From Naegleria gruberi (Eukaryota), in the NCBI GenBank assembly GCA_000004985.1, contig GG738871.1: DNA of 64,000 bases; one strand, given 5' to 3'. The notes below the pieces were generated by a model. The model saw nothing but the letters and a program-made list of their open reading frames with translations. It was not told where the DNA came from and did not search any database. Below, piece by piece: positions 1 through 51,607 of the stretch. The position numbers and the translations under genes were made by a program. Numbering within the stretch: position 1 is the first letter of the stretch; the number at the start of each line of letters is the position of its first letter.

Positions 1-5
1 CAAGC

Positions 6-542
6 ATGGCCACTTTGACAATTAATAATCCTCTCTTCGGTCAATATTATTTGAGAAGAAGTGTTCAAGTTGTTGTTTCATTTGAAATTAATTCACAATT
101 CAGTTATTCTGAAACACTTTATATTGAAAATGGAGTTTCATCTGTTTCATTAATGGTGAAATCGTTGAGTCAAACTGGTACATTGAAAGCATCTGCTCAA
201 TTAATTGATAATAGTACATTAATTTCCATTTCAGATAGCATTCAATCTTCAAATAGCATTACAATTCAAAATAGACCTATTGTTGTTCCATCCACAACGA
301 CATCCACAATCAAACCAACAACCTCTGCACAAACAAGTAGAGCTGTTATCGATACAGGAAGTAATGGTGGAGCCATTGCAGCTGGTATCATTGTTCCAGT
401 GGCAGTTATTGGAATTGGAGGTGGTGTCACTGCAGCCATTGTCACAGCAGTTGTTTTGTTAAAGAAGAAGGCTGCTGCAGCTGCTGCCAAAGAAATTACA
501 CATGCTCAACACGTCAATGTTGAACTAGCTGAAGGTTTCTAA
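6..542 (+). CDS. 3' terminal part (partial, runs off window edge) of a paralogous NHL/EGF-repeat type-I membrane protein: Ser/Thr-rich stalk, TM helix, short KKKAAAAAAKE cytoplasmic tail
   Basis: ORF 6..542 has no start within the window. Nt 1..542 are ~97% identical to 17175..17716, the C-terminus of the 12914..17716 gene, with only a few amino-acid differences. Confidence 0.6.
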   Translation: MATLTINNPLFGQYYLRRSVQVVVSFEINSQFSYSETLYIENGVSSVSLMVKSLSQTGTLKASAQLIDNSTLISISDSIQSSNSITIQNRPIVVPSTTTSTIKPTTSAQTSRAVIDTGSNGGAIAAGIIVPVAVIGIGGGVTAAIVTAVVLLKKKAAAAAAKEITHAQHVNVELAEGF

Positions 543-1198
543 TCTTGTTGATAAAAATTCATTACTGCTTTCTCCAAAATATTTTCAATGAAGTCATAAA
601 GTTGATTTCCAAAACCAATAACTTACATCTTGTATTAAACCTTTATCTTGTTAGAGTTGGCAACATAATGATTTTTCATATTTATTTGGATGTTGTTTTG
701 TAAACACACTTGTCGAATCAATCCATTGATTTTTGACAAGATCAACACAGTAGTAGCCCGATTAGTCCCTCCATTTTCCATTATAAAAAAAATGCAACAA
801 CAACAACCTCGCTCAATGATGACATTCATCTTCCATTTCATAATGACAATATGTGTCGTCGTCGTATCATTGATGTTGAATCAAAGTGGTGGTGTAAACG
901 GAGCAGTGTATCAAGTGAGTGATGCGGTTACTTTGTGGAATACCTTTTCTAAACTACAGGCTGGTATGTACAAGACTCATGACCTATTACATATTATTTA
1001 ACATGGAATGTGCTTGATGATCGGTTATTATTATGGTTGGTGTTGTTTCACATATTGTGTGTGTGGCGCTTGTAATCTTTGTTACTTACATGATTTGCAT
1101 GCTTTTCATAATATCCATGATTGTGTATTTTAAATTTGACTGTGCTCCATATGTTTGGCCAACTTGACAATACTTTTGTGTGAAATTGTGTGTGTGAA

Positions 1199-2560
1199 AT
1201 GGATGGGTTGTTTGGTGTTTTGATGCTTTTGGTGTTGGTTTTTTTTGCAGGTGATGAAATGGTTATTAGACAAGGAACTTATTCTACATCAACTGGTGGA
1301 TCCTATTATAGACAATTTACATTGAAAGGAACTGAAAGTCAACCAATTAGAGTTTATGCTTTGAAAAACGAAACTGTGGAAATTAAGGGAGATGCAGCTG
1401 GTAGTCAAAATATTCTCAATTTTGATGTTGAATATTTTGTGATGGATAATATTGGGTTCTCACAAGGTAGTCGTGGATTGAGATTTTTAAATTCGAAACA
1501 TTCAGTTTATTCTAATTTGAGAGTTAAAAACACAGGAGATGTTGGTATTGCCATGAATGACGGAAATGCTATTTATCAAAACAATACTTTAAGATATAAT
1601 GAAGTTTCGTATACTGGAGGAACTGGTGAATGTTTCTATTTGGGTTGTAACAATGCTGATTGCAAATTCATTTTCAATTTATTGGAAAATAACTATTGCC
1701 ACCACACATCTACCACCTCCCAAGGAGATGGTATTGAAATCAAAGCTGGAAGTTATGGAAATCTTGTCAGAAACAATGTCATTCATGATGGAAAGTATCC
1801 AGGCATTACCTTGTACAGCACTTATGTGTCTGGTGGTGATGCAGCTGTTGGTATTGCTAATCCAAATATTATTGAAGGAAATATCATTTGGACAGTCGTT
1901 GATAATGGTATACAAGTGACAGGTAATGCAATTATTAGAAATAACATTATTTATAATGCAGGTGCTAGTGGAATTGCCATTCAAGTCAATCAAGGAACTG
2001 TCGAAAATGTCAAAGTATTGCACAATACAGTTGTCAAAGCAGGTGCTGCTTGTATTAGAGTGACAAATTCAGGACCAGGAATTGTCATTGCTAATAATGC
2101 TGCCTATTGTGAAGCTACCAATTCAATTTATATTGCTGCTGCATTGCCTGCTGATGGTGTCATTTCAAGAAATGTCATTCAGGGATCGACTAATGTTCAA
2201 GTTGCGAATGGAACTCTCAATATTGGTAAATTCACAACTGATTTCCAAAGTACTAGCGCCTTGCCATATAATGTTTTCCCAGTTACTTCCAGTAATGTGC
2301 TTGGAAAGGCAGATTCAAAGTATGCAACCACTTATGATTTCAATTTTAATACTAGAAATGGACCAACTTATGACTGTGGTGCTTATCAAGCTAATGGAGC
2401 TACTTCAAATCCTGGTTGGATTCCAAAAGCTGGATTCAAGACAACCACAGCTCCTACACCTAATACATCTACTAAGACTAATGGTGCTGCTGTTGGAAGC
2501 TTTGTGTCAACTCTTGCACTTGTTTTCGTTGCACTTGTGGTAATGTTTACTTTGAATTAA
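1199..2560 (+). CDS. Secreted right-handed parallel beta-helix (pectin-lyase-fold-like) protein with C-terminal Ser/Thr-rich region and hydrophobic GPI-anchor-like tail
   Basis: ORF 1190..2560. ATG at 1199 gives signal-peptide-like MDGLFGVLMLLVLVFFA. Repeated beta-helix-like segments (NNVIHDG, GNIIWTVVDNGIQVTGNAIIRNNIIYNAGASGIAIQV) and C-terminal hydrophobic end VSTLALVFVALVVMFTLN. Alternative model: an upstream exon 791..960 encodes a signal peptide (MQQQQPRSMMTFIFHFIMTICVVVVSLML) spliced GTATGT...TGCAG to 1251 in phase. Confidence 0.55.
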   Translation: MDGLFGVLMLLVLVFFAGDEMVIRQGTYSTSTGGSYYRQFTLKGTESQPIRVYALKNETVEIKGDAAGSQNILNFDVEYFVMDNIGFSQGSRGLRFLNSKHSVYSNLRVKNTGDVGIAMNDGNAIYQNNTLRYNEVSYTGGTGECFYLGCNNADCKFIFNLLENNYCHHTSTTSQGDGIEIKAGSYGNLVRNNVIHDGKYPGITLYSTYVSGGDAAVGIANPNIIEGNIIWTVVDNGIQVTGNAIIRNNIIYNAGASGIAIQVNQGTVENVKVLHNTVVKAGAACIRVTNSGPGIVIANNAAYCEATNSIYIAAALPADGVISRNVIQGSTNVQVANGTLNIGKFTTDFQSTSALPYNVFPVTSSNVLGKADSKYATTYDFNFNTRNGPTYDCGAYQANGATSNPGWIPKAGFKTTTAPTPNTSTKTNGAAVGSFVSTLALVFVALVVMFTLN

Positions 2561-2798
2561 TTGAATAAAAATGTTTAAACAAATCTGTTTCTGTTCTTTT
2601 TATCTTTTATTTCTTTTTACATTAAATTTTCAACACCACACCGATTTAAACACTGTTGAAAGGCCAAAGTCCTTCTCTGATATTATCCAGTACCATTGTT
2701 ATTTTAATGGTTGAGGGCATTACAACAATAACATATATATAAGAACTTGTGGTTCATTATGTAATTCGGAATTTAAATAGTTTACTGTATTTACAAAT

Positions 2799-4712
2799 CT
2801 AATGTTGCAGGTAATCATGATGAACACGACCAGCAGGCATGATCATGTCAACCTTAAAGTTAAAGGCACCAACAACTTGCTTGACAGGGAGATCACTAAT
2901 TGGAGCGTTAACGTGAGGAATGAGTGCAAGCTTAGCATCTCCCTTATAGGCACTAGTTACATTTAGGTTGGCATGTTCCATTCTAACCAATTGAACAATA
3001 GCTGGATCACCACGAACGTCAGGAATATGCTTTAAGAATAATTGAGGAGTGGACAAGTAGGAAACGACATCTTCGAAAGCCATTCTTTCATACTTGTAGG
3101 ACATTGTACCAGTTGCAACTCTGCAACCATTGCAATCCAATGTACCCTTCAAAGTATCTTGAGTTGGAGCGAATGTAATACCATCACAGAACTTTTGAGG
3201 TAAACCAAGACATTCTCTACCATATGTAATTGGAGATGAAGAATCCAAGAAACTCATAGTGTTAAAGTGGATAGAGTTACCTTCGTTATCAGTACATGGA
3301 ACAATCAAGTCAACCTTGTAATAACTACCAATACCAGTACCATGAGTATTGACGAATTGAAGAATTACAATATTGTCTTCATTTGGAGTGAGTTGATCTG
3401 GAATCTTTTCCAACAAAGATTCTCTATCTGTTACATATTTGATAACCATGTATTCTCTGTCTTGGAGCTTTGAAGCAGATGGCTTATAGGATGGACATGT
3501 TACTGGCATTGCCAATGACTCTTCTGTAATTTTCTTTTCGGTAAAGATTGATCTGTATTGACCTGGTTGGACAAACATTTGGTGGAATTTTTGAGAAACA
3601 GCCTTATTTTCTTCAGTTGGTTCGAGATAATCATGCAAAACATTACCGTATGGCAACAAGATATCAGCCATCATGTGTTTACCTTGAATAACCTTCTTGA
3701 CAGGCAAATCAGCAACTGGTGCATTAACATTTTCAACCAAGTGCAATCTAGCTGGACCTTCAAAGGCAAAATGCAACTTTTTAACTTGCAAGTTATATGA
3801 AACAATTTGGGCAATCTTTGGCTTGAAATCAACATCAGGAATAATCTTCAAATTAATATTGGTCTTTCCCATTGATTTCAAAACAGTATCATGATCAAGT
3901 TCAGTGTGTTTGTAAGCCATTGTACCTTGAGCAACAGTTTCTCCCTTATATTTCATAACACCAACAACTGTATCTTGAATACATTTCATGGATGGGTGAG
4001 CATGTTTTTTCTAATTATATGACACAATTAATATTTCCATTTTGCTTCCGAGATTTAAAACTTACAGGAAAACCCCAAATTTCACGACCTTAATATTTAC
4101 AAGTTATTGACACAAATTAGATAATTGTTGAAATACTACTTACCAGCAGCAATTGGTGGTTCAATATCCAAATACATTTGGAGAGTAAGATTAACTGATT
4201 CTCCATTATAAGTGCAAGGAATGACAATACCTGATTCGGAATACTAACAATTAATTCATCATATATATTAAATTCTCAAAATCATTAATATCACTTACAG
4301 ATCCGAAACCAGAAGAGTCTGGCATGTTAATCCTTTAAAGAAGTTAATATCATTTCTGTAATTAAAAACACATACCATTCATACAATACATGACTATTTT
4401 CATTAGGGACAAGTGGTTCTGGAACCAAAGCACGAAGAGCTTCGGCATCAGTTTCATACGTAACAATAAAGTATTCTCTGTTCTTGAAAAAGTATGGTCC
4501 TAATATCAATATTATTGTAACCGATGAAAATATATGAAATAACAATGATGAATGATAACAAAGATGACAAACTTACCTCTCGGATAAGAAGGAGACATAA
4601 TAGGAGTAGAAGGTAATCCCAAAATCATATCCTTGGTAAATTTACCCTTCTCTTTACCTGGTTTAATAATTGATTTGAATGCTCTAGCAAAAACTGAAGG
4701 TGAAACTCTCAT
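2799..4712 (-). CDS. Protein with two tandem acetoacetate decarboxylase (ADC)-like domains, 5 exons, ~522 aa
   Basis: Exons (minus strand) approx 4712..4577, 4499..4376, 4332..4299, 4243..4144, 3973..2799; phases consistent and total length is a multiple of 3. Introns of 77, 43, 55 and 170 nt with GTAAGT/GTATGT donors. Domain 1 starts MSPSYPRG...[23 protein letters not shown]. Domain 2 starts [13 protein letters not shown]...[24 protein letters not shown]. Both match the ADC-family N-terminal signature from memory; no search was run. Confidence 0.5.
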
Positions 4713-4907
4713 TGTGTTTACTTGTTCGTTTTTTTTTTCAGTGTGTTGGAAATTAAGAAAACTAGTCCTCACTTAGTTTTTGATCTCGGAGGTTGCAGCC
4801 TGGTGGTGAGGTGGTTAAATGATTCGTTGTTATTATTGCAAGAGTTGGATATTATGCACTGCAGTAGAATTTGCCTGATAAGGAACAGTGGAAACATTTG
4901 AAAAAAA

Positions 4908-4941
4908 GCGAGAATTTTTCGCGTTTTTTTGTGATTCTCGC
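4908..4941. other. Perfect 8-bp inverted repeat (GCGAGAAT...ATTCTCGC) with 18-nt T-rich loop, in intergenic region
   Basis: gcgagaatttttcgcgtttttttgtgattctcgc lies between the 3' end of the Ubl-F-box gene and the 5' end of the ADC-like gene. Function unknown. Confidence 0.3.
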
Positions 4942-5176
4942 CATTTACAGTAGAACTTACTAAGAGGGTGTTGAATAATTCAATGTTCGTTGTAATTGTT
5001 ATGGTGATTGACCTCCATTAATTCAATATCATCTTTCAGATAGACTCTCACATTTTATTTTACGTATCCACTCTGGTTGGCTTAAAGAAGAATCTAACCA
5101 TCTATTATAAAATTCATTAATGTCAAATTTTAAAAACACATTAAGCTAACTTAAAATAACACAATTTAAAACGAAT

Positions 5177-5213
5177 GGGGACCAGTGGGAATCATACCAC
5201 TAGACCATGGTCC
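5177..5213 (-). other. tRNA-derived mini-helix: acceptor stem + D-arm of a tRNA-Pro-like gene joined directly to the 3' acceptor strand (anticodon and T arms absent)
   Basis: Minus strand reads GGGACCA-T-G-GTCT-AGTGGTA-TGAT-T-CCCAC-TGGTCCC. The first 26 nt parallel the tRNA-Pro 5' half (GGCTCGT-T-G-GTCT-AGGGGTA-TGAT-T-CTCGC). The terminal TGGTCCC is the exact complement of the 5' GGGACCA. Confidence 0.25.
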
Positions 5214-5517
5214 CTTACATCAATAATGTGACTGTAAGACATGTAATCTGTTTCCATTTTTGTTTGAAACAAACAAGGGTGTTGTGGGGTTAATTAATTT
5301 TTTGGCTGGCAAGTTGATGTACAATCATGTTGACATTTTGTTATGAAATTGAAAAGCTTAAATAAAATTTGTTGTTTGTTGCAGATGGGATTCATTGAAG
5401 AATGGATTTTTTGCTGTTTTTTTAACTTATTGGAAGAGGTTGAACATTTAATGATACAATGATTGAGTTTATTATTCACATTTGTTTTAATATAAATAGA
5501 GATACAATGATATATAA

Positions 5518-7612
5518 TTAGTGTTCATATAAAGTGGCGAGATTAGAAATAACTTGTTGCTTAACTTGTTCACTTTCAACTGCGAGGACAATCTTTCTAA
5601 AGACCTTCTTTTTCTTCTTCTTTTGATTGTTGAGGGATTTCAAATTTTCTTCAACTGAAACTTCTTCATCTTCTGTTGGAGCTGATGAAGCAGCTTGTTG
5701 ACGAGTCTTTTCAGTTTCGGCCAAATACTTGGTGAGAGCTTTACCAAAAGCAACACCCAATTTAGAGGAGGAAACTTCATCGTCCTTCTTTAACTTTTTA
5801 AAGAATAATTCTTCACACAATGGAAGACCTAGACTACCAACAGTATCTTGTTTCAAAGCTTGAATCAATGCAGAAACATAGGTTTCAACCAATGAATCCA
5901 AACTAGCATCAATACCTTCTTCTTCCTTATAGGCAACAGCAGTAGCATTGAAGAGATATCTATCAAATTCAGGATCAGCCTTTTCTTCTTCAGTCAATTC
6001 AACTGTAGAGACAGAGTGTTGAAGAGCTCCCTTTCCTTGATTGGCTTGTTGGAGTTTCTTTTCAGTGGACTTTTCAGGTTCCTTGACTTCAATACGTGGT
6101 CTTTCAGCAGATTGCAATCCTTCAAATTTACGAAGAGTAATCAATACATCGAGAATGGCATCAACAAAGAGGCCCTTAACACCTTGTGGATTAACAACAA
6201 TGTTAACCAACTTCTTTTCTTCAATGTGCTTAGTGGAACATAATCCTAAATATTGGAAGAATTCCTTAGCAATTTCCAAGTTTGCCTTTGGATTGGCTCC
6301 ATCAGAAAGAATGTGAGCAATCTTGAACTTGTCACCAACAACTTCCAATTCACCAACATAGAGCAATTTCTTGCCCTCTTTTTGAACAATAAAGTATTGA
6401 CCTCTATCATTATAGAATCCATAAACTGAATCAGTATCAAAAGAGAAGCTATGTTTCATCAATTCTTCATAGGATAACATGAGTAAATTTTCTGGAACTA
6501 CTTGCCAAGCACCTTGTTCCATTTCTTCCTTTCTCTTTTGTAACTTTTTAAATCTGGAATATCTTTCCAAATCAGCTTCTCTTTCTTCCTTTGTCTTTTT
6601 ACCTCTTGAACGAACATCAAGTTTAAGCTTTTTCAAATCATTAGCTTTGAGGAATTGTTCATCATCTTCAGTCAATTCTTTTGGCTTTCTTCTAACCTTA
6701 ATTTGTCTAACATTAGACAATTTTGAAACCAATTCCTTCTCCGATTCCAAACTAGCAACTTGCTTATTTTGATTTGGAGTCAATTGTTTAATATGTTCCC
6801 AAACCTTCTCAATCACAATGGTTTGTTTGTACAATTTTCTACAATCAATACCACGAGATTTGAACAAGACTTTTTCAGAGGCTGTTGTTGGTTGATCTTC
6901 TTCATTATTGGCGCCAGAATTTGATGCCTGTTGATTGAGTGCGTAGGTAGCTGAATTGGCTCCGTGTGTAGAGGCATCGTGACGAGCGTACAATTGATTC
7001 AACAAGGCTTCCCATACCACTTCGTGATGGACAATGGTAGAGATACGGAATCGACGACATGTAAGTTCAATGCTCAGGGCAATGTCACGTGCTGAGAGGA
7101 AGGAGAAGATGTTGGCGAGAACGTGATCATTGGATCCACTTTCTGTGATTGGACTTTAAAAGTTGGATCGAATTGAATAATCAATATAATTATTTTGTTG
7201 TTTATATATTATTATTATTATTATCATCATCATCATTAAACAATTAATAATAATAACAAATAAAAATTATATTATTAATATTAATTAGTTAATTAGTTAA
7301 TGATTATTATAAAACTCACGTAAAAACACCCAAATCTTTAGGTTTCGAAACTTTAAACTTTTCTTCACCTGCATCTCTTTCAATGACCATAGTAATGGTT
7401 TGATTATTCTTTACTGATAAATCCCACAAGGAAATCTCATTGGATGTTAATTCTACATTGTTAAAATAACAAATCACTTTATCTGTTGGTGTCAAGTTGG
7501 TATGTTGATGGACAAGACGTTTAATGTCAGCGATTGAGGTTGAGTTTTCAACATCATCAAATTTTAGTGAATCTGCAATGTTGGCACCTAAGAGTCTGAT
7601 GAAGAGTCTCAT
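5518..7612 (-). CDS. Ubiquitin-like domain + F-box protein, 2 exons, ~642 aa, long charged/coiled-coil C-terminal region
   Basis: Exon 1 is 7612..7320 and encodes the Ubl-like fold MRLFIRLL...TITMVIERD. The 166-nt AT-rich intron runs 7319..7154, with GTGAGT donor and TTTTAAAG acceptor. Exon 2 is 7153..5518 and begins in phase with an F-box-like motif DHVLANIFSFLSARDIALSIELTCRRFRISTIVHHEVVWEALL. There is no in-frame ATG upstream of the F-box within exon 2; a stop lies immediately upstream, which supports the spliced model. Confidence 0.55.
7190..7312. repeat. AT-rich microsatellite-like tract (ATT/ATC/TAA repeats) inside the intron of the Ubl-F-box gene
   Basis: ttattattattatcatcatcatcattaaacaattaataataataacaaataaaaattatattattaatattaattagttaattagttaatgattattat. 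Confidence 0.6.
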
Positions 7613-7935
7613 TTTGTGTGGAGTATATTGCAGGTTGTTGTTGTGGATTTTTTTTTTGTGTAAAGTCGTTACAGTTTGTCGAGTTGAAAGATGACAGCGA
7701 AATGATGGTTGTCAAAAGAGGAATTTTTTGATTACAGAAGAACTTTTTGATGCTTGAAGAACCTGAATGGCAACACCTCATTTGACTCTCAATTTTTATG
7801 TATTTAATATTAATAGGTGATTATTCTAAATGTTTATTCGAAAGTGGGTGTGAAAACTATGAGAGAAAGGTCAATAACAATTTCTGATTCCAACAATCAA
7901 GTTTCACATATATTCCAAGTTCTTTCGATTACTTT

Positions 7936-7944
7936 ATTCGAAAC
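7936..7944. promoter_or_regulatory. ATTCGAAAC motif ~85 bp upstream of the 8023 ATG
   Basis: actttattcgaaaccaatc at 7931..7949. Confidence 0.2.
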
Positions 7945-8022
7945 CAATCAACAAACAAGCTCAACTGGAAGATTTTGAAATTCAACTTTCCGCTGCTTTC
8001 ACCCATCACCACTCAACAAAAA

Positions 8023-9446
8023 ATGACTCGATTCAAAAGATTTTCAATCTTTGGCTCAGGATCAAAGAGAAACACAACCCGAGGTTCGTATATCACTAAT
8101 TTCCATTCGCTCATGACGAATTAATTGCTTCATCTCTATTCATCATCATTAATTTCTCAACAATATTTCATTCCGATGATGATAATATATTTTTTATGAT
8201 GAAATAATATTTTGCTGATTCTGATTTTTTTAATGATGATGAATAATATTAATAATAATAATTAATTACAGATTTGTTGTCGGATGAAGAAAGATGGGCA
8301 CAAGAAGAGGAAGAAAAGAAGAAACTCCTTCAAGTATCATTAATACAAAACGAAGAGATGAAGAAGGATGTTGAAACATTGTTGGACAACAAGATGAGAA
8401 ATTGGGTGAATGCAACTGAAAAGAATAGATTGTATCAATCGATAGTGGTCGATAGTTTGAGTGAGGAAGAAAAGAATCATGTCAATTATTGTCGATCCAA
8501 GTATTTGAAATTGAAAAATCAGATACAAATTGGAAATGAAACAATTACAATACTGACACAGAATAGGACTGTGAGTGAGAGATTTTTCTACATGTTTTTC
8601 AATCCAAGTATTTTAGAGATACCTGTAGATTGGAAGGTTGGATTAAAACCATTCATGAAGATTAGATTATTGTTCACACCAGTTCAGGTTGGAGAGGTGA
8701 CTAATTTTCATGCCTTGCTGTTGGTTGGATGTTGGTGTTTGGAGTGGGATAAATCATCTTCTCTGGTGATTGTTAAACAGTTGGATATTACTAGAGTGTA
8801 TTTTGCTATTGATTTGGAGAGATTGACAAGTGAACAAGCTATTCATGAGTGCTTTAATAAGATTTCACAAGAGTGTTGTTTGTGGAATGGATCTAAGGAG
8901 TTCAATGCTAAATCTTGTAATAATCAACATTGTAAGTATATTGTGATGAACTTGTTTTAAAATGAATGAATATCTAATATGAATATATTCATAGTCATTC
9001 TTGCCTTGTTGGATAAATTGAAAATTTCACACAACTTGAAAGGATTATCAAAGATTTATTTTGACACATTGCTGGAAAATGGATCAAGTGCAATGACATT
9101 GAAATTATCGGATGAACTGAAAGAACTACTCAAGATTGATTCAATTACATTTAATACACATCAAGAATTGGACCAATTTACAAAAACAATACACGATTCG
9201 AATCCGTACTATTTTTCACAATACATTTCTGATGAATTGTTGTTGAAATGCTTTGATGAACAATTTTGGTATCTGAGAGATGCCAATGCCAACAATACAA
9301 ATGCTCCACTGATGGAAAATGAAGAATGTCAATGCTACTTTAACAAGAATCAAACTAATTATAACGAGTATGTCAATAAGGGAAAGACTGTAAATAATGT
9401 CTTTTGTTCAAGAAGTTTAATTCCACCAATGCCACTCAGATTTTAA
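8023..9446 (+). CDS. Hypothetical protein, 3 exons (8023..8083, 8272..8931, 8995..9446), ~391 aa
   Basis: ATG at 8023 followed by GTTCGT donor. A 188-nt AT-rich intron ends AATTACAG. A second intron is 63 nt (GTAAGT..TTCATAG). Phases are consistent and join ORFs 8274..8960 and 8979..9446. No recognisable domain; a Cys/His-containing segment FHALLLVGCWCLEWD. Confidence 0.4.
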
Positions 9447-9574
9447 TAAATTATTATTATTAACTAAAACATTCTTTGTGATAGAGATCAATAAATATAT
9501 TGAGAAATATTCATCATAACAGACTCACAAGTTTTATTTCATTGACAAAATTGGTTTCAAAATTGTTCCTTCAC

Positions 9575-10765
9575 TTATTGCTTGTAGGTATCAACTGGCT
9601 TCTTATAGGTATCGACTGGCTTCTTGTAAGTGTCAACCTTCTTTGGTGGCTTATAAGTATCGGTCTTCTTTGGTGGCTTGTAGGTATCAACCTTAGTACA
9701 AACTCTCTTCTTCTTAGCACAGACACTCTTATCAGCGTGCTTTCTACAGACTCTCTTACCTCCAACAAAGTTGTACTTGACACAGATCTTTTGACCTGGT
9801 GACTTCTTGACACAATGCTTCTTGAATGATCTCTTAATACATCTTGGCTTCAATGTCTTGTATTGAGTACAATATGGCTTGGCAACATAGTCACAACAGA
9901 ACTTATCTTCTTTGTAAGCCTTACAAACTCTAACCTTTTCTTTGAGATCACAGAATTTGCTTGGAGTCCACTTGGTACAGAACTTGGTCTTTTGCTTGGC
10001 AACGCAATACTTTCTTTGGACAACCTTAACACATTTCTTTTCATAACCAATCTTCTTGGCAAACTTGACGTTTTCATATTTGGTACAGGTCTTCTTCTTG
10101 GCATATTCAACACAAATGGTACGATGCTTCTTTTCCAAAACTTGCTTATAGTAATGATCGATCCAACCCTTGTAATGTTTCTTACTGACTGGAACCCATT
10201 TAGCAACAGTTCTTGAGAGTTTCTTATATTTGGCACAATATTGATGAACAGAGTATTTGGCACATCTCTTCTTATGGAAATACTTAATCTTTGGAACGTA
10301 GGTTTCAGCAGCACATCTTGATGACTTGTCATACTTGGTACAAATGAAATGATAAGCATATTCATCACAAGCATTATTCTTTCCGTGGTGTTTGCACAAT
10401 TCCTTCCATTCATATTTGGCACAAATCTTGTGCTTAGTAACCTTTGAACAGAATTGCTTATAACCGTGACCCAAACAAATCTTTTCAGCTTTGCTGTACT
10501 TGTCACACTTGTGAGTCTTCTTATATTCCAAACATTTACCCTTTCCAACAGTCTTCCAATCGCAGCACTCTTTCTTGGTACCAACCCATTCATAATCAAC
10601 ACATTTACCTTGGATAGTCTTGTAGTGAGTACACTTGTTGTAGCAATACTCTTGATGATCAGAATAGGTATCAACCTTCTTGGAAGGAGCAGGAGCTGGG
10701 TTTGCAAGAACCATACTTGCTGCCAATACACTCAAAACGATTGCAATGATTATACTTGTTTTCAT
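9575..10765 (-). CDS. Secreted, extremely Lys- and Cys-rich repeat protein (396 aa) with ~30 CxKY-type units and C-terminal VDTYKKP tandem repeats
   Basis: ORF with N-terminal signal peptide MKTSIIIAIVLSVLAASMVLA. Regular spacing of Cys and KY/KF/KW residues. C-terminus reads TKVDTYKPPKKTDTYKPPKKVDTYKKPVDTYKKPVDTYKQ, encoded by visible DNA tandem repeats at 9575..9700. Confidence 0.55.
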   Translation of the reverse strand: MKTSIIIAIVLSVLAASMVLANPAPAPSKKVDTYSDHQEYCYNKCTHYKTIQGKCVDYEWVGTKKECCDWKTVGKGKCLEYKKTHKCDKYSKAEKICLGHGYKQFCSKVTKHKICAKYEWKELCKHHGKNNACDEYAYHFICTKYDKSSRCAAETYVPKIKYFHKKRCAKYSVHQYCAKYKKLSRTVAKWVPVSKKHYKGWIDHYYKQVLEKKHRTICVEYAKKKTCTKYENVKFAKKIGYEKKCVKVVQRKYCVAKQKTKFCTKWTPSKFCDLKEKVRVCKAYKEDKFCCDYVAKPYCTQYKTLKPRCIKRSFKKHCVKKSPGQKICVKYNFVGGKRVCRKHADKSVCAKKKRVCTKVDTYKPPKKTDTYKPPKKVDTYKKPVDTYKKPVDTYKQ

Positions 10766-11146
10766 TTTGTTTTTTTGATGTTTGTTCTGGATGAGTTGGT
10801 GTTTGACTTTTTATACGAAATTCAATGAAAGAATGAAGAAGCAAACAAGTGTCGACTATCAATACAAATACGTGTTTTGTGAAATTATGCTATTGATTCA
10901 TATTTGTAACTTTTCGTGAATGTTTGAGTTATTCCCTAAAATGGTTAGAAAGGTGAAGTACAATATTAAAATATTAATTTTCTAAAAATTTCTAAAATCC
11001 TCCATAATTCGTTTGAACCGTTTCCTCCAATCATTCCCATCATTAAATTACAAAATCTACTCTCAATAATCTTAATAAATAGATGAACTTTAAATTTCTA
11101 ATATGGCCATATTAATTGTCAATAAAAACGAAATAGAAATTACCTA

Positions 11147-11596
11147 CTATTCAAAGTTTTTTCTATCACAGTGTACCAACTTTTCCACAGCATCGGGTCT
11201 TTCTCTACAGTAGAGTCCTAACTTGAAAATTTCATTAGAGGCTCTTAATAAACCATCTGAGTGAAATTGATCTCTAGTTAAAGTATTTCGTTCCATTACA
11301 TAATTCTTCATTGGCTTGTAATATTCGAGCTTGTGTACTTGGAGTCTACAAATTGGACAAGAATTATTTACAAGAATCTTATCAAATGAGAAAATTTCAG
11401 GTTTTTGAGTGAAAAATCCAGAGTCATCCTCATCTCCAATCATCTCTTCGTCTTCCATCTTCTCTGCAAATTCTGAAACACAACCAGAACAAAAGCAGAC
11501 GTGATGACAAGGAATACATCTGTATTCACATGGATTATCTCTACAAATGACACAATTTTCACTAGCAAGATTGAAATCATCCTCTAAAATGGTCAC
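11147..11596 (-). CDS. Small RING-finger (C3HC4-like) protein, 149 aa
   Basis: CVICRDNPCEYRCIPCHHVCFCSGC ... CPICR fits C-x2-C-x11-C-x-H-x3-C-x2-C-x(~40)-C-x2-C. Acidic linker between the two halves. Confidence 0.5.
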   Translation of the reverse strand: MTILEDDFNLASENCVICRDNPCEYRCIPCHHVCFCSGCVSEFAEKMEDEEMIGDEDDSGFFTQKPEIFSFDKILVNNSCPICRLQVHKLEYYKPMKNYVMERNTLTRDQFHSDGLLRASNEIFKLGLYCRERPDAVEKLVHCDRKNFE

Positions 11597-11697
11597 TGCT
11601 CTAGTACTGCTATCATTTTCAACTTGTGAATTATTTCCTTGATTCGTTAATGAGGGTAATAGCTATGGTTGAATTGTTCCAATTATTATTTGATATT

Positions 11698-12483
11698 TCA
11701 TTTCAAAATCATTCCAAAACATACATTTACAACTTTTGCCAATTCATTTTCCAAATATTCCTTATACTTTTTCAATTGTGAAAGATTCATTCGTGATATA
11801 TTATTGGCCACTCGTGTGATCCTCTGATTTCCCAATGTAGTAATTAATAGTTCAATACTATTCATTGTTCTCCTCTCTCTATCAATCTGATCCAATGTCT
11901 TGTACAAATGAATTAGGTGATATCTAACCTGATAGCAAGAGACAATCATCAGAATGGCATACAGAGTATTTCGGAGGGAATCTTCAAAATAAATTCCATT
12001 AATTGCAATATAATACACAATAAACCAAGTATGTGGAACCACAAAGTACAAGCAACAGGCAGTCAGTGGCGTAATCAATTTATAAAAGGCCATTCCCACA
12101 TATCCCATCAATCCATAAATTACAACTCTATCCAATGCAACTTCCGATAATCTCTTACCCATTTGCTCACTCATAAACAGAACATTAGCACCACCATTAA
12201 TTGATTGATAATTATCATCAGCAGCAGCACCACTACTACCACTACTACTATTACCAACACTACCATTCATCATTAAATTATTTTCCAATGATGTCGACGG
12301 TGGTGAGGATGATGTAAGAAAAAGCGAGGGAACATTAAAAAAATATACAGCAATCATGTAGAACAAGATGGAACGCACTACTGGATTGGTGAGGAAGGTT
12401 ATTGTGGGGATTGCTACTCGAAGTATACTTCTAGAAGATTCCGATCGATTTGATGCAACTATGCGTCCTAATAATTGATCCAT
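11698..12483 (-). CDS. Hypothetical multi-pass membrane protein, 261 aa
   Basis: ORF with several hydrophobic helices (ILFYMIAVYFFNV, VIYGLMGYVGMAFY, CCLYFVVPHTWFIVYYIAI, YAILMIVSCY). Its stop lies 101 bp upstream of the RING gene start. Confidence 0.4.
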   Translation of the reverse strand: MDQLLGRIVASNRSESSRSILRVAIPTITFLTNPVVRSILFYMIAVYFFNVPSLFLTSSSPPSTSLENNLMMNGSVGNSSSGSSGAAADDNYQSINGGANVLFMSEQMGKRLSEVALDRVVIYGLMGYVGMAFYKLITPLTACCLYFVVPHTWFIVYYIAINGIYFEDSLRNTLYAILMIVSCYQVRYHLIHLYKTLDQIDRERRTMNSIELLITTLGNQRITRVANNISRMNLSQLKKYKEYLENELAKVVNVCFGMILK

Positions 12484-12913
12484 TTTTTAATTAGATAATA
12501 TATTATTGTGCTGAAATAATTGAATTATATATTATTATTAATTTATTATATTTAATATGCTATATAATTGAGTTTAGTTCGAATAATTTATTGCTCAGTT
12601 ATAATTTGCTGTGAATCCAATAATCAAAATTTTTATGGTATGACTTCTTCATAAGGAGTTTGTGTTAAATCATAATAACACATGATGATTGTAAAATTCA
12701 TCTTTCCAAAAGATCAATTTTTAACTGAAGGATCTCCAAATCCTCCATGACTGGAGTACATGCGCATTTTCAAGAGTGACACTTGTCATGCACTAAAAAC
12801 CAAGAGGAAAAACCCTTTCTTTATTGAGAATGCTAAGGTGTTAGTGCATTTAACCAGAGCAATAGGGCAAAGAAAGAAACGGTTCATAGGATAAGCACAC
12901 AAAAAAAAACAAT

Positions 12914-15900
12914 ATGAAACTAGTGAGCTTTCCCTATCATTTGTTGATTGCTGCTTGTGTAGTGTTACTTCTTGGCAAAGTTAGTGCATGGAGATATTCT
13001 GTGAAAACTCTTGCTACAGGTCTAGGCAGTATTTCTCAAATTGTTGGCTCTCCAAAATATATTTATGTTACACTTGGCTCCAGTTCAAAGAAGATTTATG
13101 CCTACGATAGACAATTATTGGCCACTCAGTCTGTACAAACATTGCAACAAGTCCACGATATAACAGCATCATCAAACAATATTGGTTATATTGCTTATCA
13201 TGGCAATGATTCGAATGACGCTGAAGTGATATCAGTAGCTGGCAATAATTTTCCAAACAATGTGGGTTTGTACTGGTTTACATGCTCATCAACCTGTTCC
13301 ACTCCAACACCCTTCTCTTATAATATAAGGGTCTCAGGAATTAGATCCCTAGGAATTGAGAACTCAACTCCCAAACTTTACATAACAAGACAAACAGCAA
13401 TTTACACTGGCACTCCTTCAGCAAATGCTATTGTATCAACAACTGGAACAATCAATTTTAAAGCTTTCAATGATGTTGATTATATTGGCAATACAGTAAG
13501 TTTTAATTATTTTGCAAATAGGTAACATTGGTTTAGGTTTATTTTACTGACTCAGGTGGAAACCTAAAAATTGCAACAAGTTCAACACCATTAATCAGTG
13601 TAGGCACATTTAGTGATGGTGCCAGTGGTACTGCTCGTTTATCTTCAGGCACAACATTCATCTCTGCACAGTTCAATAAGGTATGTAGTTATGAACAATA
13701 TGTTGTTGGAATAATTTTAAAAGATTTTTATCTCAGACACTGGAAACAGTAGAATTAGACTTTATGATATTGCTACAGGAATTACAACTACAATAGCTGG
13801 TGATCCTTCTAAATCAACAGCTGGAACAACAACTTTCAGTTTATCCGACGTACCAACTAATTACAAATTCACACCAACAGGTATTTGGATTGATAACTCT
13901 AATGGTATCATTTATTTTGCAGACACCAGTACCTTGAGAGCTTTAGTTCCAACTTGTAACAGTACTACAGAAGATCAATCTTCAACTTACCCTTTCTGTA
14001 CTTGTAAAACTGGATATTCATTGGTAAATGGAGATTGTGTTGCATCCACTAGTTGTTCTCCAGGATTGTGTAATGACAATCAAACATGTACTGGCCCAGA
14101 AACTTGTTCTTGTAAGAGTGGATATTATGGAACAAATTGTGATAATTATGACTGTTATGGAACTCAGAAGGATAATCTTTCTGTATGTAATGGAAAAGGT
14201 GTTTGCGTTTCTCCAAACACGTGTATTTGCACCAATGCAAACTATGATGGCTTTAATTGTAATATTACAACTTGTAATTCTATTCCATCAACGAGTGGTA
14301 GTGTTTGTTCTGGACATGGAAGTTGTACTGATTATAATACTTGTGCTTGTAGTGATACCAATTCATGGACAGGATCTGATTGTGGAACACCTGTATGTGC
14401 AGCTGTGAGTGGAGGTGTTTGTTCTGGAAGAGGTAGTTGTACAGCTCCAAATATTTGTACTTGTAATGAACCATCAAAATATGGTGGATCTTCATGTGAA
14501 ATTCCAAAATGTAATGGAACACTTCAAGGCAATTCTGGTGTTTGCAATGGAAGAGGTTCTTGTATTGATGTTGATACTTGTCAATGCACTGTTCCAACCT
14601 CTTGGGGTGGTTCATTCTGTGAAAAACCATACTGCTCTGGAATTTTACAAGGTGCAGCTGGTGTTTGTTCAAATAGAGGTGTTTGTTCATCTCCTGATTC
14701 TTGTGTTTGTAATGAACAAACAAAGTATGGTGGTTCAAATTGTCAACTTGTTAAATGTGGAGGTTATTTAGAAACAGACTCTGCTGTTTGTAACAAGAAT
14801 GGTTCATGTATTGCTGTTGATACTTGTTCCTGTAATTCAAATTATGATGGCCAATTTTGTCAATATCCAAAATGTAATGGCATTGCTTCAAATAGTGGTA
14901 GTGTTTGTAATTCACAAGGATCATGTGTTGCACCAAATGTCTGCTCTTGTTTCACAAATTATGCTGGACCATTATGCGAATATCCAAAATGTAATGGCGT
15001 AGCTTCCAATGATGCAAGTGTTTGTAGCTCGAATGGTACCTGTACTGGTGTTAATACTTGTGTTTGTAATGTTAACTATACAGGATCATATTGTCAATAT
15101 CCAAAATGTAATGGAATATCTTCAAACGATGCAAGTGTCTGTAATAACAAAGGTGGTAATTGTATTGCACCAAATGTTTGTTCATGTAATTCAAGTTATA
15201 CTGGTCAATTCTGTCAATTCCCAAAGTGTAATGGTATTGGATCCAATGATGCAAGTGTTTGTAGTGCAAATGGTACTTGTATTGGAATTAATATTTGTTC
15301 ATGCAATTCAAATTATGCTGGTCCATATTGTCAGTATCCAAAATGTAATGGCATTGCTTCAAATAGTGGTAGTGTTTGTAATTCACAAGGATCATGTGTT
15401 GCACCAAATGTTTGCGCCTGTAATTCAAATTATGGTGGTACATATTGTGATAAACCAAGATGTGGAACCTTTTACAAGGGAGATGCTTCTGTTTGTAATT
15501 CGAGAGGTAGTTGTGATGCTGTTGATAGTTGTACTTGTAGTGATACTTCTTCTTGGGGTGGCAATTTGTGTCAATATCCAAAATGTAATGGTGTTCTTTC
15601 AAATATTGGAACTGTTTGTAGCAGTAGAGGTACTTGTCAATCTCCAAACAATTGTTCATGCACTGATCCAAATTCATATGGTGGTTCATATTGTGAAAAA
15701 GCAAAATGTTATGGAATTCTTCAAGGAGATTCAAATGTTTGTAGTGGACATGGTACTTGTAGTGGTGTGAATCAATGTTCATGTAGTGCTGGATATGGAG
15801 GTGAACAATGTCAATATCCAAAATGTTTCAATATTTTGAGTAATGAAACAACAGTTTGTAACAATAGAAACGGTACTTGTACTGCTCCTGACACTTGTTC

Positions 15901-17716
15901 ATGTAAAAATGGATGGACTGGAAGCAAGTGTGATGTTGCCATTTGTTATTCAATTCTCTCCAATTCAACAAGTGTTTGTTCAAACAAGAGAGGTAATTGT
16001 GTCACACCAGATAATTGTGTTTGTAAAAGTCAATATTCAGGTTCTCAATGTGAATATACCACTTGTTCTGGAATAAGATCAGATCAAACATCGACAGTAT
16101 GTTATGGAAATGGTCAATGTATTGATTATAATACTTGTAATTGTACAACTGGTTATGGACCATCCAATGTATGTCAATATCCAATTTGTGGTGGTTATTT
16201 AGCAAATGATGCCAGAGTTTGTAACAATTCAAGAGGTGTTTGTTCCAAACCAAATACATGTAGACCATTAGATCCCGTATGTTATGGTAAAGCTCAGAAT
16301 AATTCAATGGTTTGCAGTGGAAATGGAGCATGCGTTGATTGGGATTATTGTGAATGTAAAACTGGTTTCAATGGAAATGAATGTCAAAATTGGGAATGTT
16401 ATGGAAAGAATTATACCAACTCAAATGTCTGTAACAATGGAAATGGTACCTGTTCATCTGTGAATAATTGTGTTTGTAACAGTGGATGGTATGGAAACGA
16501 ATGTACAGTTCCAATGTGTAATGGAATTCTTGGCAATTCATCTCTCGTTTGTAACAATAGAAATGGTACCTGCTCCAAACCAGGTGCATGTCAATGTAAT
16601 ACTGGATACACAGGACCTGATTGCTCCATTCCAATTTGTTATGGAAAATTAGGCACTGATACAAGTAATGTTTGTTCAGGAAGAGCAGAATGTATTGGTT
16701 ATAACAAGTGTAATTGTGACACTTCCAAGTATAGTGGTTCACAATGTGAATATTTCAAATGTTTTGGTATTCCATCAAATGATGCTTCAGTTTGCAGCAG
16801 AAACGGAACATGCTCTGGAGTGAATCAATGTTCTTGTAATTATGGTTATGGTTCTTCAAATTGTGACACTTTCACATGTTCAAATGTTCTTGCCACCAAT
16901 TCAAGTGTTTGCAGTGGAAAGGGTGTATGTTATGGAATTGACAAGTGTTCATGTGATTCAGGATATTTCAGTACCAATTGCGAGCTATTTTCTTGTTATG
17001 GAATTCCAAAGTCCAACAATACTGTATGTGGAGGAGTTGGTGAATGTTCACAACTTGATACATGTGTTTGTGGAAGCAATTATAGAGGATCAATGTGTGA
17101 ATTATCTTACACCTCTTCATCTCAAGCAACACTTCAATTCAATAATACGAATGAATATGTGAATGAACAATTCACAAGCATGGCCACTTTGACAATTAAT
17201 AATCCTCTCTTCGGTCAATATTATTTGAGAAGAAGTGTTCAAGTTGTTGTTTCATTCCAAATTAATTCACAATTCAGTTATTCTGAAACACTTTATATTG
17301 AAAATGGAGTTTCATCTGTTTCATTAATGGTGAAATCATTGAGTCAAACTGGTACATTGAAAGCATCTGCTCAATTAATTGATAATAGTACATTGATTTC
17401 CATTTCAGATAGTATTCAATCTTCAAATAGCATTACAATTCAAAATAGACCTATTGTTGTTCCATCCACAAAGACATCCACAACCAAACCAACAACCTCT
17501 GCACAAACAAGTAGAGCTGTTATCGATACAGGAAGTAATGGTGGAGCCATTGCAGCTGGTATCATTGTTCCAGTGGCAGTTATTGGAATTGGAGGTGGTG
17601 TCACTGCAGCCATTGTCACAGCAGTTGTTTTATTAAAGAAGAAGGCTGCTGCAGCTGCTGCCAAAGAAATTGCACATGCCCAACACGTCAATGTTGAACT
17701 AGCTGAAGGTTTCTAA
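12914..17716 (+). CDS. Large type-I membrane protein: signal peptide, NHL-repeat-like beta-propeller region, ~35 tenascin-type EGF-like repeats, Ser/Thr stalk, TM, short tail (~1572 aa; exons 12914..13495, 13537..13680, 13724..17716)
   Basis: Signal peptide MKLVSFPYHLLIAACVVLLLG. NHL-like motifs VYFTDSGGN, IFISDTGNSRIRLYD, GIWIDNSNGIIYFADTS. Two tiny in-phase introns of 41 and 43 nt (GTAAGT..TTTAG, GTATGT..AAAAG) bypass in-frame stops. Six-Cys EGF units ~32 aa each, of the form YPKCNGIxSNxxSVCxxxGxCxxxNxCxC. C-terminal TM AIAAGIIVPVAVIGIGGGVTAAIVTAVVLL. Confidence 0.65.
14864..15411 (+). repeat. Intragenic exact ~77-bp repeat (copies ~14864..14940 and ~15335..15411) within the EGF array; part of ~96-bp periodic coding tandem repeats spanning ~14000..17100
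   Basis: The identical string tatccaaaatgtaatggcattgcttcaaatagtggtagtgtttgtaattcacaaggatcatgtgttgcaccaaatgt occurs twice 471 bp apart (five EGF units). The motif ccaaaatgtaatgg (YPKCNG) recurs throughout. Confidence 0.7.
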
Positions 17717-17863
17717 TTGTTCATTATGATAGTTTGTCAATAATAAACTTTAAATTTTGATGTTTAGTGAAATGATGCTCAATTATTTAAATGGTTCGTA
17801 ATTGTCTCTCCTAACAAAATAGAAACTACAACCAAATCACAGGGCATCACAACACAAAATAAA

Positions 17864-20411: not shown

Positions 20412-20420
20412 ATATTCAAG

Positions 20421-22297: not shown

Positions 22298-22404
22298 TTT
22301 TTTTTTAAATGTTTTTTACAAAAAGTTGTTTATTATTATGATTAAGTTTAGAATTGAAAATTTAAATATATTTGAATGGAATGCAGAAGAAATATGTGGA
22401 TAAA

Positions 22405-47198: not shown

Positions 47199-47566
47199 AA
47201 GTACAGTCAATGGTTTTATCCAATTTGTTAGAGTGAGGGGATGATATTGGCTTGGAAAGTGTGTCGGGTGGTGAGGGAAAGTTATGGTTCAATTTATGAA
47301 GGTGAGAAAAATAGAGAAAAACTAAATTCAAGAAAAAGTTTGAGGTTTGAAGAAGGAGAATTTTAAGATTGAAGAAGGTGTGGTATTAGCTAATATTTGC
47401 CATGCATGCTAAGTTACATATAGATAATAGATTACACACAAATTTTACAAATATTGGGTTTGTAACAATTTAAAAGAGTTTATATGTATGAATCAAACTG
47501 TGAAGCAGGGGCTTATCAGCCGAATGAAATATGATAAATTTAGTGTATTTTCATTATGAATGTGAA

Positions 47567-51553: not shown

Positions 51554-51607
51554 ATCCAAGCTCTGCAAATAAAGAAATCTGTGAATAATATGGCAAACAA
51601 AACTATC

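Follow-up and report, generated by a model that had tools for sequence, protein, structure and literature searches.

Two nearly identical gene ends in the nuclear genome of Naegleria gruberi NEG-M raise the question of what kind of duplication relates them and to which family of proteins the genes belong. The stretch of DNA analyzed here (64,000 nt of a 417,575-bp scaffold, hereafter the window) opens with the 3′ end of a gene, copy A, which recurs at the 3′ end of a complete gene, gene B; a diverged relative, gene C, lies on the opposite strand (Table 1). The preliminary description of this DNA read the repeat as a recent segmental duplication of a giant receptor gene. In our opinion, copy A and gene B are probably paralogues in direct orientation, 17.2 kb apart, which constitute a gene-size duplication or a conversion pair and belong to a family of NHL-EGF surface receptors.

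The two 3′ ends align without gaps on the same strand at an offset of 17,174 nt (17175–17716 versus 1–542), with 10 of 542 nucleotides substituted. The near-identity reported previously thus stands, although the figure is 98.2% rather than ~97%. In the frame that ends at TAA 540–542, six of the differences are synonymous and four are non-synonymous (E/Q, T/K, I/T, and T/A), one more than the three amino acid changes counted before; Ks is 0.047 and Ka 0.0099, which corresponds to a Ka/Ks of 0.21 (Fisher p = 0.017). The differences are evenly distributed, and identity reaches the left edge of the window undiminished, at 98%. Chance cannot account for a 542-nt match of this quality, and the repeat is therefore confirmed as genuine. 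The window sequence contains no N, and a third copy of the shared tail was not found within it.

Similarity is lost within ~10 nt past the TAA. The flanks do differ, as had been claimed. A word-7 blastn comparison of the flanks 543–6000 and 17717–23000 gave a best match of only E = 0.08, and a repeat search found no copy of 543–12913 on the 3′ side of 17716 within the window. At least seven unrelated ORFs occupy the 12.4 kb separating the copies, and the pair is therefore not a simple tandem unit. Segmental duplications are usually defined as tracts that span 1 kb or more with an identity of no less than 90%, non-coding flanks included. High identity was found over the 542 nt available, whereas the tract does not extend into the flank on the 3′ side. 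With unrelated 3′ flanks and unrelated ORFs in between, a 17-kb segmental duplication is not supported; copy A and gene B are more probably a gene-scale duplicate or a gene-conversion pair. A duplication with a simple, random breakpoint does not account for similarity that ends at a stop codon. As for the second, upstream copy in the same orientation, its near-identical 3′ end is observed, while its full length is an extrapolation from the last 180 codons.

Table 1. Coordinates of features of copy A, gene B, and gene C in the window
Feature	Position	Strand	Remarks
Copy A, 3′ end	1..542	+	180 codons open + TAA 540–542; gene extends upstream of window
Copy A, most of Ig-like β-sandwich	about 1–291	+	transferred from gene B, 17,174-nt offset
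Copy A, Thr/Ser stalk	about 292–371	+	transferred from gene B, 17,174-nt offset
Copy A, TM helix	about 372–458	+	transferred from gene B, 17,174-nt offset
Copy A, cytoplasmic tail, 27 aa	459–539	+	transferred from gene B, 17,174-nt offset
Gene B, complete	12914..17716	+	product 1572 aa
Gene B, exons	12914–13495, 13537–13680, 13724–17716	+	spliced CDS 4719 nt, in frame, one stop
Gene B, intron 1	13496–13536	+	41 nt, GTAAGT..TTTAG
Gene B, intron 2	13681–13723	+	43 nt, GTATGT..AAAAG
Gene B, signal peptide	aa 1–25	+	hydropathy
Gene B, N-terminal ectodomain, putative divergent NHL-type β-propeller	12989..13993	+	aa 26–332
Gene B, EGF array	14054..17098	+	25 complete six-Cys units, aa 353–1367 (regex count)
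Gene B, younger EGF sub-array	14824..15448	+	TRF period 117 nt ×5.3 or 237 nt ×2.5
Gene B, degenerate 4-Cys EGF unit	aa 1064–1090	+	one unit, inside array
Gene B, membrane-proximal part	17099..17716	+	17175–17716 is the portion duplicated in copy A
Gene B, Ig/FN3-like β-sandwich	about 17099–17467	+	AF2 pLDDT 85.4; >94 over residues 11–120
Gene B, TM helix	17546–17632	+	hydropathy; followed by 27-aa cytoplasmic tail and TAA
Gene C, diverged paralogue	46504–42770	−	ATG at 46504; long ORF 46087–42770
Gene C, introns	46304–46262, 46214–46172	−	43 nt each
Gene C, A5 run at frame break	46079..46083	−	exons 1–3 out of frame with 1105-codon ORF

The layout proposed earlier for gene B is borne out: the complete gene encodes, in order, a signal peptide, a putative divergent NHL-type β-propeller, EGF units, an Ig-like β-sandwich, a Thr/Ser-rich stalk, a TM helix, and a 27-aa tail. 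Splicing restores the NHL-type motifs VYFTDSGGN and IFISDTGNSRIRLYD. By hydropathy the topology is type I, with a signal peptide at the N-terminus and one TM helix that lies 27 residues before the C-terminus, and 28 NxS/T sequons are present; as predicted from the sequence, the product is a heavily N-glycosylatable type-I surface protein. Foldseek returned generic β-sandwich matches only for the β-sandwich (E about 1e-4 to 1e-3). No TIG domain, which the preliminary description had suggested searching for, was detected; the membrane-proximal domain is a generic Ig/FN3-like β-sandwich without sequence-family assignment. Four ORFs of the window are identical to N. gruberi NEG-M proteins. For gene B, an identical or near-identical N. 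gruberi protein was not found in public protein collections, and the public gene catalogue seems to lack one of the two copies. The 5′ end of gene B is ~99% identical to an environmental contig, L001.

The N-terminal domain of gene B had been called an NHL-like β-propeller, which sequence similarity supports and family thresholds do not. Membership was judged against Pfam PF01436 and the related PF25021 and PF08450. Pfam NHL reaches only 13.0 bits in gene B (cutoff 20, E = 0.11), the corresponding domain of gene C has no Pfam NHL match, and that of the N. lovaniensis counterpart described below scores 20.2 bits for TEN_NHL against a cutoff of 27.1. By contrast, a phmmer search of 1.84 billion representatives gave 6175 matches at E ≤ 1e-3, 26 of them at E ≤ 1e-30, each of the listed matches with many matched stretches. 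NHL or TEN_NHL was recognized by Pfam in five of the six best matches scanned (E down to 1e-160). The domain thus shows significant similarity to genuine NHL proteins, with the repeats in register. In all but one of the listed matches the best alignment falls within mature residues 135–305, mostly ~195–290; only about two blades, the last two, are recognizable, and the first 170 residues match a single environmental ORF (P0162). The AF2 model, built from an NHL-seeded alignment, is of low confidence, with a mean pLDDT of 54.7, a pTM of 0.61, and residues 62–158 below 50; Pizza6 and the PknD NHL propeller are the PDB structures that it matches best (E ~1e-7, TMq 0.39–0.56); it should be noted that the model leans to the NHL fold because its input alignment contained NHL proteins.

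The EGF assignment is clear of the Pfam cutoffs in both genes. Gene B scores 199.7 bits for EGF_2 (6e-60), 169.7 for EGF_TEN (1e-49; cutoff 65), and 125.1 for EGF_Teneurin (1e-36), and gene C scores 169.7, 137.1, and 139.6 bits, respectively; with their C-x-C spacing, the arrays of both genes are of teneurin/tenascin type. The range of 20–35 units given previously accommodates gene B (25 complete and one degenerate) and not gene C (17 and one). Intragenic duplication, also proposed earlier, is evident in gene B: the 117-nt period of its younger sub-array equals one EGF unit, the closest pair of units (14821–14909 and 15292–15380) is 91% identical, a repeat search found the repeat families D1–D3 in this sub-array, and the gene has 25 units versus 16 in the N. 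lovaniensis counterpart.

Gene C is indeed present as the diverged, convergent relative described before. It encodes a signal peptide, a degenerate NHL-like domain, the EGF array, a β-sandwich, a Ser/Pro-rich stalk, and a C-terminal hydrophobic segment that ends the protein, and its EGF array matches that of gene B at 44% identity along 708 aa; between the N-domains hardly any alignment is possible (22% over 89 aa, E = 0.02). The claim that all three genes encode type-I proteins fails here, as gene C has no cytoplasmic tail and its signal-peptide exons are out of frame as assembled. Deletion of one A from the A5 run yields a continuous 1215-aa protein; read against the alignment, its corrected stretch PFIAVDEAQEKVYLSEYFSMKIRALNYGKQLLQGDP retains both the NHL motif and the ~43-aa blade period. 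An alternative 46-nt intron (GTATGA..ACAAG) also mends the frame, but a blade strand is lost. The public model (NAEGRDRAFT_49505, XP_002676640.1, D2VH00) comprises the 1105-aa ORF alone and is N-terminally truncated because of this frame break.

The closest counterpart of gene B is N. lovaniensis C9374_011222 (P0124), a 1239-aa “EGF-like domain-containing protein” with the same order of parts: signal peptide, a degenerate NHL-like domain of ~330 aa, six-Cys EGF array, β-sandwich, TM helix, and a KKKAAAA...VEL tail. Identity to gene B is 48% over 901 aa reaching the C-terminus; the protein has 16 EGF units and lacks the Thr-rich stalk insert. The N-domains of the two proteins align end to end at only 24% identity (E = 5e-12), against the strongly conserved TM helix and tail. 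The N. lovaniensis proteins C9374_003885 (P0133) and C9374_013349 (P0143) and N. fowleri P0138 likewise carry an N-terminal NHL propeller ahead of a teneurin-type EGF array, with a membrane-proximal stretch and a TM helix after it, and P0133 shares the β-sandwich module with gene B. Unlike gene B, these other Naegleria NHL-EGF proteins have canonical NHL repeats above the Pfam threshold. Naegleria proteins combining NHL and EGF occur with and without a kinase domain; the receptor kinases have, in addition, a further large region in the ectodomain and a protein kinase domain in the cytoplasm, whereas gene B has its short tail only. A search of the literature found no paper on this family.

The abrupt loss of similarity past the stop codon bears on an explanation that we consider possible, though doubtful, namely that copy A and gene B are an older pair whose coding regions were homogenized by repeated gene conversion (concerted evolution) rather than the products of a recent duplication. 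The sharp boundary would then mark the edge of the homology usable for conversion, in agreement with flanks that retain no trace of homology and with the unrelated ORFs between the copies; repeat-rich coding sequence is, moreover, a good substrate for conversion. However, the 10 evenly spaced differences form no visible patchy tracts, and one recent duplication with a breakpoint by chance near the stop codon fits equally well. What is seen of copy A, beginning at position 1, would also suit a partial 3′ fragment or a chimera, in which the membrane-proximal module alone was duplicated or shuffled onto another ectodomain. This module of β-sandwich, stalk, and TM helix does recur behind different N-terminal domains (gene B, gene C, P0124, and P0133), and neither copy was found in the public proteome. 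Such an origin is nevertheless unlikely, given that the frame of copy A is open to the window edge, that its Ka/Ks points to translated, constrained sequence, and that identity shows no decay toward position 1.

We regard it as very improbable that the repeat was created by the assembly, either from an allelic haplotype of gene B or from a repeat that was collapsed or joined wrongly, with the product set 17 kb upstream. The absence of both copies from the public gene set may reflect repeat masking or a problematic region, and contig L001 indicates that variants at such divergence occur in nature; but the window is continuous, and the sequence 3′ of copy A is unique and runs straight into other genes, whereas shared flanks would be expected of an allelic haplotig. 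The synonymous excess is that of diverging functional genes, although alleles would give the same.

The reading we prefer is thus that of two paralogues, derived either from a recent duplication of approximately gene size or from older duplicates with converted coding sequence; purifying selection has acted on both ever since they last had sequence in common. The pair would be part of a family of NHL-EGF surface proteins found throughout Naegleria, receptor kinases included, with gene C as a distant member, and the family probably grows also by duplication of EGF units within genes. In gene B, a divergent, six-bladed propeller would form the presumed ligand-binding head at the distal tip, and the 25–26 teneurin/tenascin-type EGF units would form a long rod between this head and the Ig-like β-sandwich. 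Such a protein may serve the amoeba as a surface receptor for adhesion or recognition, in contacts with substrate, prey, or other cells. The finding itself is an ordinary gene-family expansion of some annotation value. A more far-reaching reading, to which we give little credence, is that copy A and gene B belong to a set of multiple near-identical NHL-EGF receptors that the annotation hides, kept alike by conversion and with very fast diverging heads. If true, this would be a fast-evolving system by which a free-living heterolobosean recognizes prey, self/non-self, or partners in mating, and an independent, non-metazoan combination of NHL propeller and teneurin-type EGF units within an ectodomain, which bears on the origin of teneurin-like architectures.

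The resemblance to teneurins and tenascins noted in the preliminary description holds for the subtype of the EGF units and for a probable NHL propeller and does not extend to topology or to the YD/RHS, FN3, and fibrinogen domains. Tenascins are defined by FN3 repeats, a fibrinogen globe, and an N-terminal oligomerization region. Arrays of short six-Cys EGF units are common to them and to gene B; tenascins are secreted, however, whereas the gene B protein is membrane-anchored, and Pfam matched no FN3 or fibrinogen domain in gene B or C. Tenascin identity was rejected, as neither FN3 repeats, a C-terminal fibrinogen globe, nor an oligomerization region was found by Pfam.

With teneurins, gene B shares six-Cys EGF units of the EGF_TEN/EGF_Teneurin subtype and would share a six-bladed NHL propeller within one ectodomain. 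Teneurins are metazoan adhesion proteins of type II, with an N-terminal cytoplasmic domain and a TM helix before the EGF units; about eight such units precede the propeller, and a YD-repeat barrel, an RHS core, and an end of GHH-toxin/TCAP type are further parts (PMC6297184). Gene B, in contrast, is type I and has its putative propeller ahead of 25 EGF units. Pfam found no YD, RHS, or toxin parts in genes B and C (EGF families only in the ORFs, nothing of the kind in the N-domains), and with the topology opposite, teneurin identity was likewise rejected. The best structural matches to the N-domain, the Mycobacterium tuberculosis PknD sensor and the designed Pizza6, are bounded by a TMq of only ~0.4–0.56 for a model of pLDDT 54.7. 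Neither has an EGF rod, and PknD is bacterial, with its kinase inside the cell; the likeness would lie in a six-bladed NHL-type propeller held outside the cell by a protein that crosses the membrane once.

Genes A and B, of which A shows only its 3′ end in the window (nt 1-542) and B is complete (1572 aa), end in a repeat that is 98.2% identical between 1-542 and 17175-17716, with 10 differing positions in a gap-free alignment. The repeat finder likewise pairs these two stretches (offset 17,174 nt), a sensitive blastn search revealed no third copy of the tail within the window, and the window contains no N. The repeat is real and lies far past chance expectation. In the reading frame ending with TAA (540-542 and 17714-17716), the differences comprise six synonymous changes and four amino-acid replacements (E/Q, T/K, I/T and T/A). 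The near-identity reported in the preliminary description thus stands, although its figures of ~97% and three replacements were slightly off. By the Nei-Gojobori method, the 542-nt tail has Ks = 0.047 and Ka = 0.0099, a Ka/Ks ratio of 0.21, and the synonymous excess is significant (p = 0.017). These estimates apply to the 542 nt in view; the 5′ limit of the repeat falls beyond the window edge. The two N. gruberi genes form a genuine and recent pair (Ks ~0.05) of paralogues under constraint, coding for a giant surface glycoprotein. The pair represents ordinary protist gene-family expansion, and its annotation value is modest.

The preliminary description regarded the pair as the product of a segmental duplication, which overstates its extent. 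At least seven unrelated ORFs separate A from B. They include ORFs for a beta-helix protein and an acetoacetate-decarboxylase-like protein, together with four that have no family and are characterized from sequence: a protein rich in Lys/Glu, a secreted protein rich in Cys/Lys, a Cys-rich ORF whose CxxC/CxH pattern resembles that of RING domains, and a protein with multiple TM segments. None of the interval ORFs recurs downstream of gene B within the window; therefore, the event was gene-sized rather than a 17-kb segmental duplication. The flanks are also unlike: the A/B likeness is gone at most ~10 nt past the stop codon, and blastn finds no resemblance between 543-6000 and 17717-23000 (best E = 0.08). 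That this homology edge falls at the stop codon may reflect a breakpoint placed there by chance, or else gene conversion limited to coding homology.

Gene B appears in the ORF list as two pieces, 12914-13525 and 13934-17716. Two GT..AG introns, 13496-13536 and 13681-13723, can be read from the sequence between ORFs, and splicing them yields a CDS of 4719 nt whose sole stop is the terminal one. NHL-like motifs, VYFTDSGGN and IFISDTGNSRIRLYD, are formed across the splice junctions. The architecture proposed initially (NHL-like head, EGF array and TM helix) is broadly right for this gene (see table). The EGF_2, EGF_TEN and EGF_Teneurin models score far over the Pfam cutoffs, PDB sequence matches to the EGF region are generic only (WIF-1, DLL4; E ~1e-6), and the product carries 28 N-glycosylation sequons. 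The 542 nt present twice code for the membrane-proximal module, which AlphaFold2 models confidently as a beta-sandwich (pLDDT 85.4, core above 94). Foldseek returns generic Ig, FN3, macroglobulin and CBM-like matches only, and TIG, a family earlier named for checking, has no Pfam match. The module is common to gene C, a diverged paralogue on the minus strand, and to the N. lovaniensis proteins C9374_011222 and C9374_003885.

Principal features of the window and of the gene B product (aa, residues of the 1572-aa protein)
Feature	Position	Strand	Remarks
Gene A, 3′ end	1-542	+	
Gene B	12914-17716	+	
Gene B signal peptide	aa 1-25		hydrophobic
Gene B N-terminal domain			~307 aa
Gene B EGF array	aa 353-1367		25 regular six-Cys units + 1 degenerate
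Gene B non-Cys region			~125 aa, then Thr/Ser-rich stalk
Gene B TM helix	aa 1517-1545		then 27-aa tail
Gene C	46504-42770	-	
Right-handed beta-helix (pectate-lyase-like) protein	1190-2560	+	C-terminal hydrophobic anchor
Two tandem acetoacetate-decarboxylase-like (PF06314) halves in one ORF	2799-3989	-	
Secreted, extremely Lys/Cys-rich 396-aa protein	9575-10765	-	C-terminal (K)(P)VDTYK(P)PKK repeat run; no family
Right-handed beta-helix (pectate-lyase-like) protein	23636-24727	-	partial PH-domain match
U3 snoRNA	46982-47210	-	
tRNA-Leu(CAA)	47567-47647	+	
Translation elongation factor 2 (EF2) ORF	47907-50471	-	intron-free
tRNA-Glu(TTC)	51607-51680	-	
5S rRNA gene	53009-53127	-	
9-nt coding tandem repeat, KEPREP-like	54522-54690	+	12 overlapping copies; inside ORF 53787-54977

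The assignment of the gene B head to the NHL propellers requires more care, as Pfam NHL reaches 13 bits, below the cutoff of 20. With phmmer, an exhaustive search against 1.84 billion representatives gave 6175 matches at E<=1e-3, nearly all of them best at mature residues ~195-290 and with many matched stretches in each target. Five of the six top matches scanned are multi-NHL/TEN_NHL proteins by Pfam. The sixth is a 181-aa environmental ORF from Logan with no Pfam family, which matches the first 170 head residues at 56% identity and is the sole phmmer match to that part. From a 10-row alignment, AlphaFold2 gives a weak model of the head (pLDDT 54.7, pTM 0.61, residues 62-158 unmodelled). It consists of four-stranded blades, and its best PDB matches are the designed Pizza6 propellers and the PknD sensor (E ~1e-7, TMq up to 0.56), both NHL-type six-blade propellers and the nearest folds to the model. 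This fold evidence is supportive yet not independent, because the input alignment contained NHL proteins. From sequence and model we conclude that the head is probably a diverged propeller of the NHL type, in which two blades can be clearly recognised.

Gene C opens with an ATG at 46504, encodes a signal peptide and contains two 43-nt introns (46304-46262 and 46214-46172). Its third exon and the 1105-codon ORF starting at 46087 are in different frames. If the A5 run at 46083-46079 is shortened by one A, a continuous 1215-aa protein results, and the corrected sequence (...PFIAVDEAQEKVYLSEYFSMKIRALNYGKQLLQGDP...), read against the alignment, retains the NHL motif and the ~43-aa blade period. A one-base insertion gave the wrong frame. 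A 46-nt GTATGA..CAAG intron would restore the frame, but it deletes the conserved KIRALN strand and seems less likely to us; for this reason, we favour a 1-nt frameshift, introduced either in the assembly or by a lesion of very recent origin. NAEGRDRAFT_49505 (XP_002676640.1), the gene C model in public databases, corresponds exactly to the 1105-aa ORF from the internal ATG at 46087. It is thus devoid of the three upstream exons, in which the signal peptide and the first blades of the propeller are encoded. The protein ends inside a hydrophobic segment, with no cytoplasmic tail, and could be GPI-anchored or tail-less. Its EGF array is 44% identical to that of gene B, the heads are 22% identical over 89 aa only, and gene C has no tandem-repeat signal. 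Gene C belongs to the family as a distant relative and does not amount to a third copy. The range of 20-35 EGF units originally ascribed to these proteins accommodates gene B, while the 17+1 units of gene C fall short of it.

Gene B appears to be absent from the public NEG-M protein set, and its twin A is presumably absent likewise. Neither of two homology searches, with the N-domain and full-length queries, returned a close N. gruberi protein, hence both genes appear unannotated; the full-length search was word-indexed rather than exhaustive and failed to return even the annotated model of gene C. An exact look-up of the 1572-aa model found no identical public protein. Genes neighbouring A and B are annotated, and the missing models may, among other causes, stem from the masking of repeats at the annotation step. 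The tail and exon-1 peptides found no relatives in JGI metagenomes. The only environmental DNA match is a 1359-nt contig of ENA ERZ929261, ~99% identical to 12629-13987, which covers 285 nt of the gene B promoter (with two small indels), exon 1, both introns and exon 2. This contig could derive from copy A or from a strain variant of gene B. It differs from gene B at 6 positions in the 1068 nt from the ATG, compared with 10 in 542 between A and B (p = 0.03); being less diverged, it is more likely a strain variant of B. Its presence indicates, by sequence, a N. gruberi-like amoeba in the sample.

The closest database relative of gene B, N. lovaniensis C9374_011222, shares its domain order and aligns with 48% identity across 901 aa that reach the final residues. 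It differs in having only 16 EGF units, nine fewer than gene B. Intragenic duplication, as proposed initially, is evident in gene B: the sub-array 14824-15448 repeats every 117 nt, the length of one EGF unit, in 5.3 copies, is also readable with a two-unit period of 237 nt, and includes one unit pair that is 91% identical. Such duplication fits with the nine-unit surplus. The TM helix and the KKKAAAA..EIA..V.VEL tail are kept much better than the ectodomain between the two species, a pattern that could reflect a conserved partner within the membrane or the cytosol. The conserved stretch spans residues 1513-1572 of B and 1182-1239 of its counterpart (GAIAAG..VP..IG..GVTA.IV..VV..KKKAAAA.A.EIA.A..V.VEL).

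The window has ~34% G+C, standard stop codons and introns of 41-43 nt. Its EF2 ORF is 100% identical to an NCBI N. gruberi EF2. Three ORFs exactly match NAEGRDRAFT_58202, NAEGRDRAFT_49505 and NAEGRDRAFT_49511, from the same contig as the EF2 protein, and a further ORF exactly matches a NEG-M Rab-family GTPase. This gene is an EF2-like paralogue that has diverged: its identity to two other EF2 proteins of N. gruberi (P0010 and P0085) is only 59% and 47%, and to the counterparts in N. lovaniensis and N. fowleri 63-65%. Just past gene C, small RNA genes form a cluster (see table). The exact acetoacetate-decarboxylase-like ORF has no entry in the public protein collection, and the public model probably differs from our reading. 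The ORF carrying the KEPREP-like repeat has no Pfam family.

The main value of these results is, in our opinion, curation: the apparent absence of gene B, and presumably of A, from the NEG-M set, and the loss of the signal peptide and first propeller blades from NAEGRDRAFT_49505 owing to the frame break. The pair also documents growth of the large NHL-EGF surface-protein family of Naegleria by gene-scale duplication and by EGF units added within genes. Searches for Naegleria with NHL and EGF, Naegleria with teneurin, and PRJEB11402 found no relevant literature. Canonical NHL propellers with the same EGF type occur in other Naegleria proteins, some with a cytoplasmic kinase, and related receptor kinases are present in N. 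fowleri, a human pathogen. The contrast between a fast-evolving head and a conserved TM helix and tail is unsurprising in a protist surface-protein family, and is useful background for studies of amoeba adhesion or prey recognition.

The proper class of these proteins is a Naegleria NHL-EGF surface-protein family, whose members are deposited as hypothetical proteins. Tenascins feature FN3 repeats and a fibrinogen globe, both of which are absent, by Pfam, from genes B and C. Gene B resembles teneurins in its EGF subtype and in having an NHL propeller. Teneurins are type II proteins in which ~8 EGF units precede the propeller, and their defining parts are a YD barrel, an RHS core and a toxin-like end (PMC6297184). 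Gene B has the reverse topology and none of these three parts; thus, the teneurin analogy drawn in the preliminary description goes too far.
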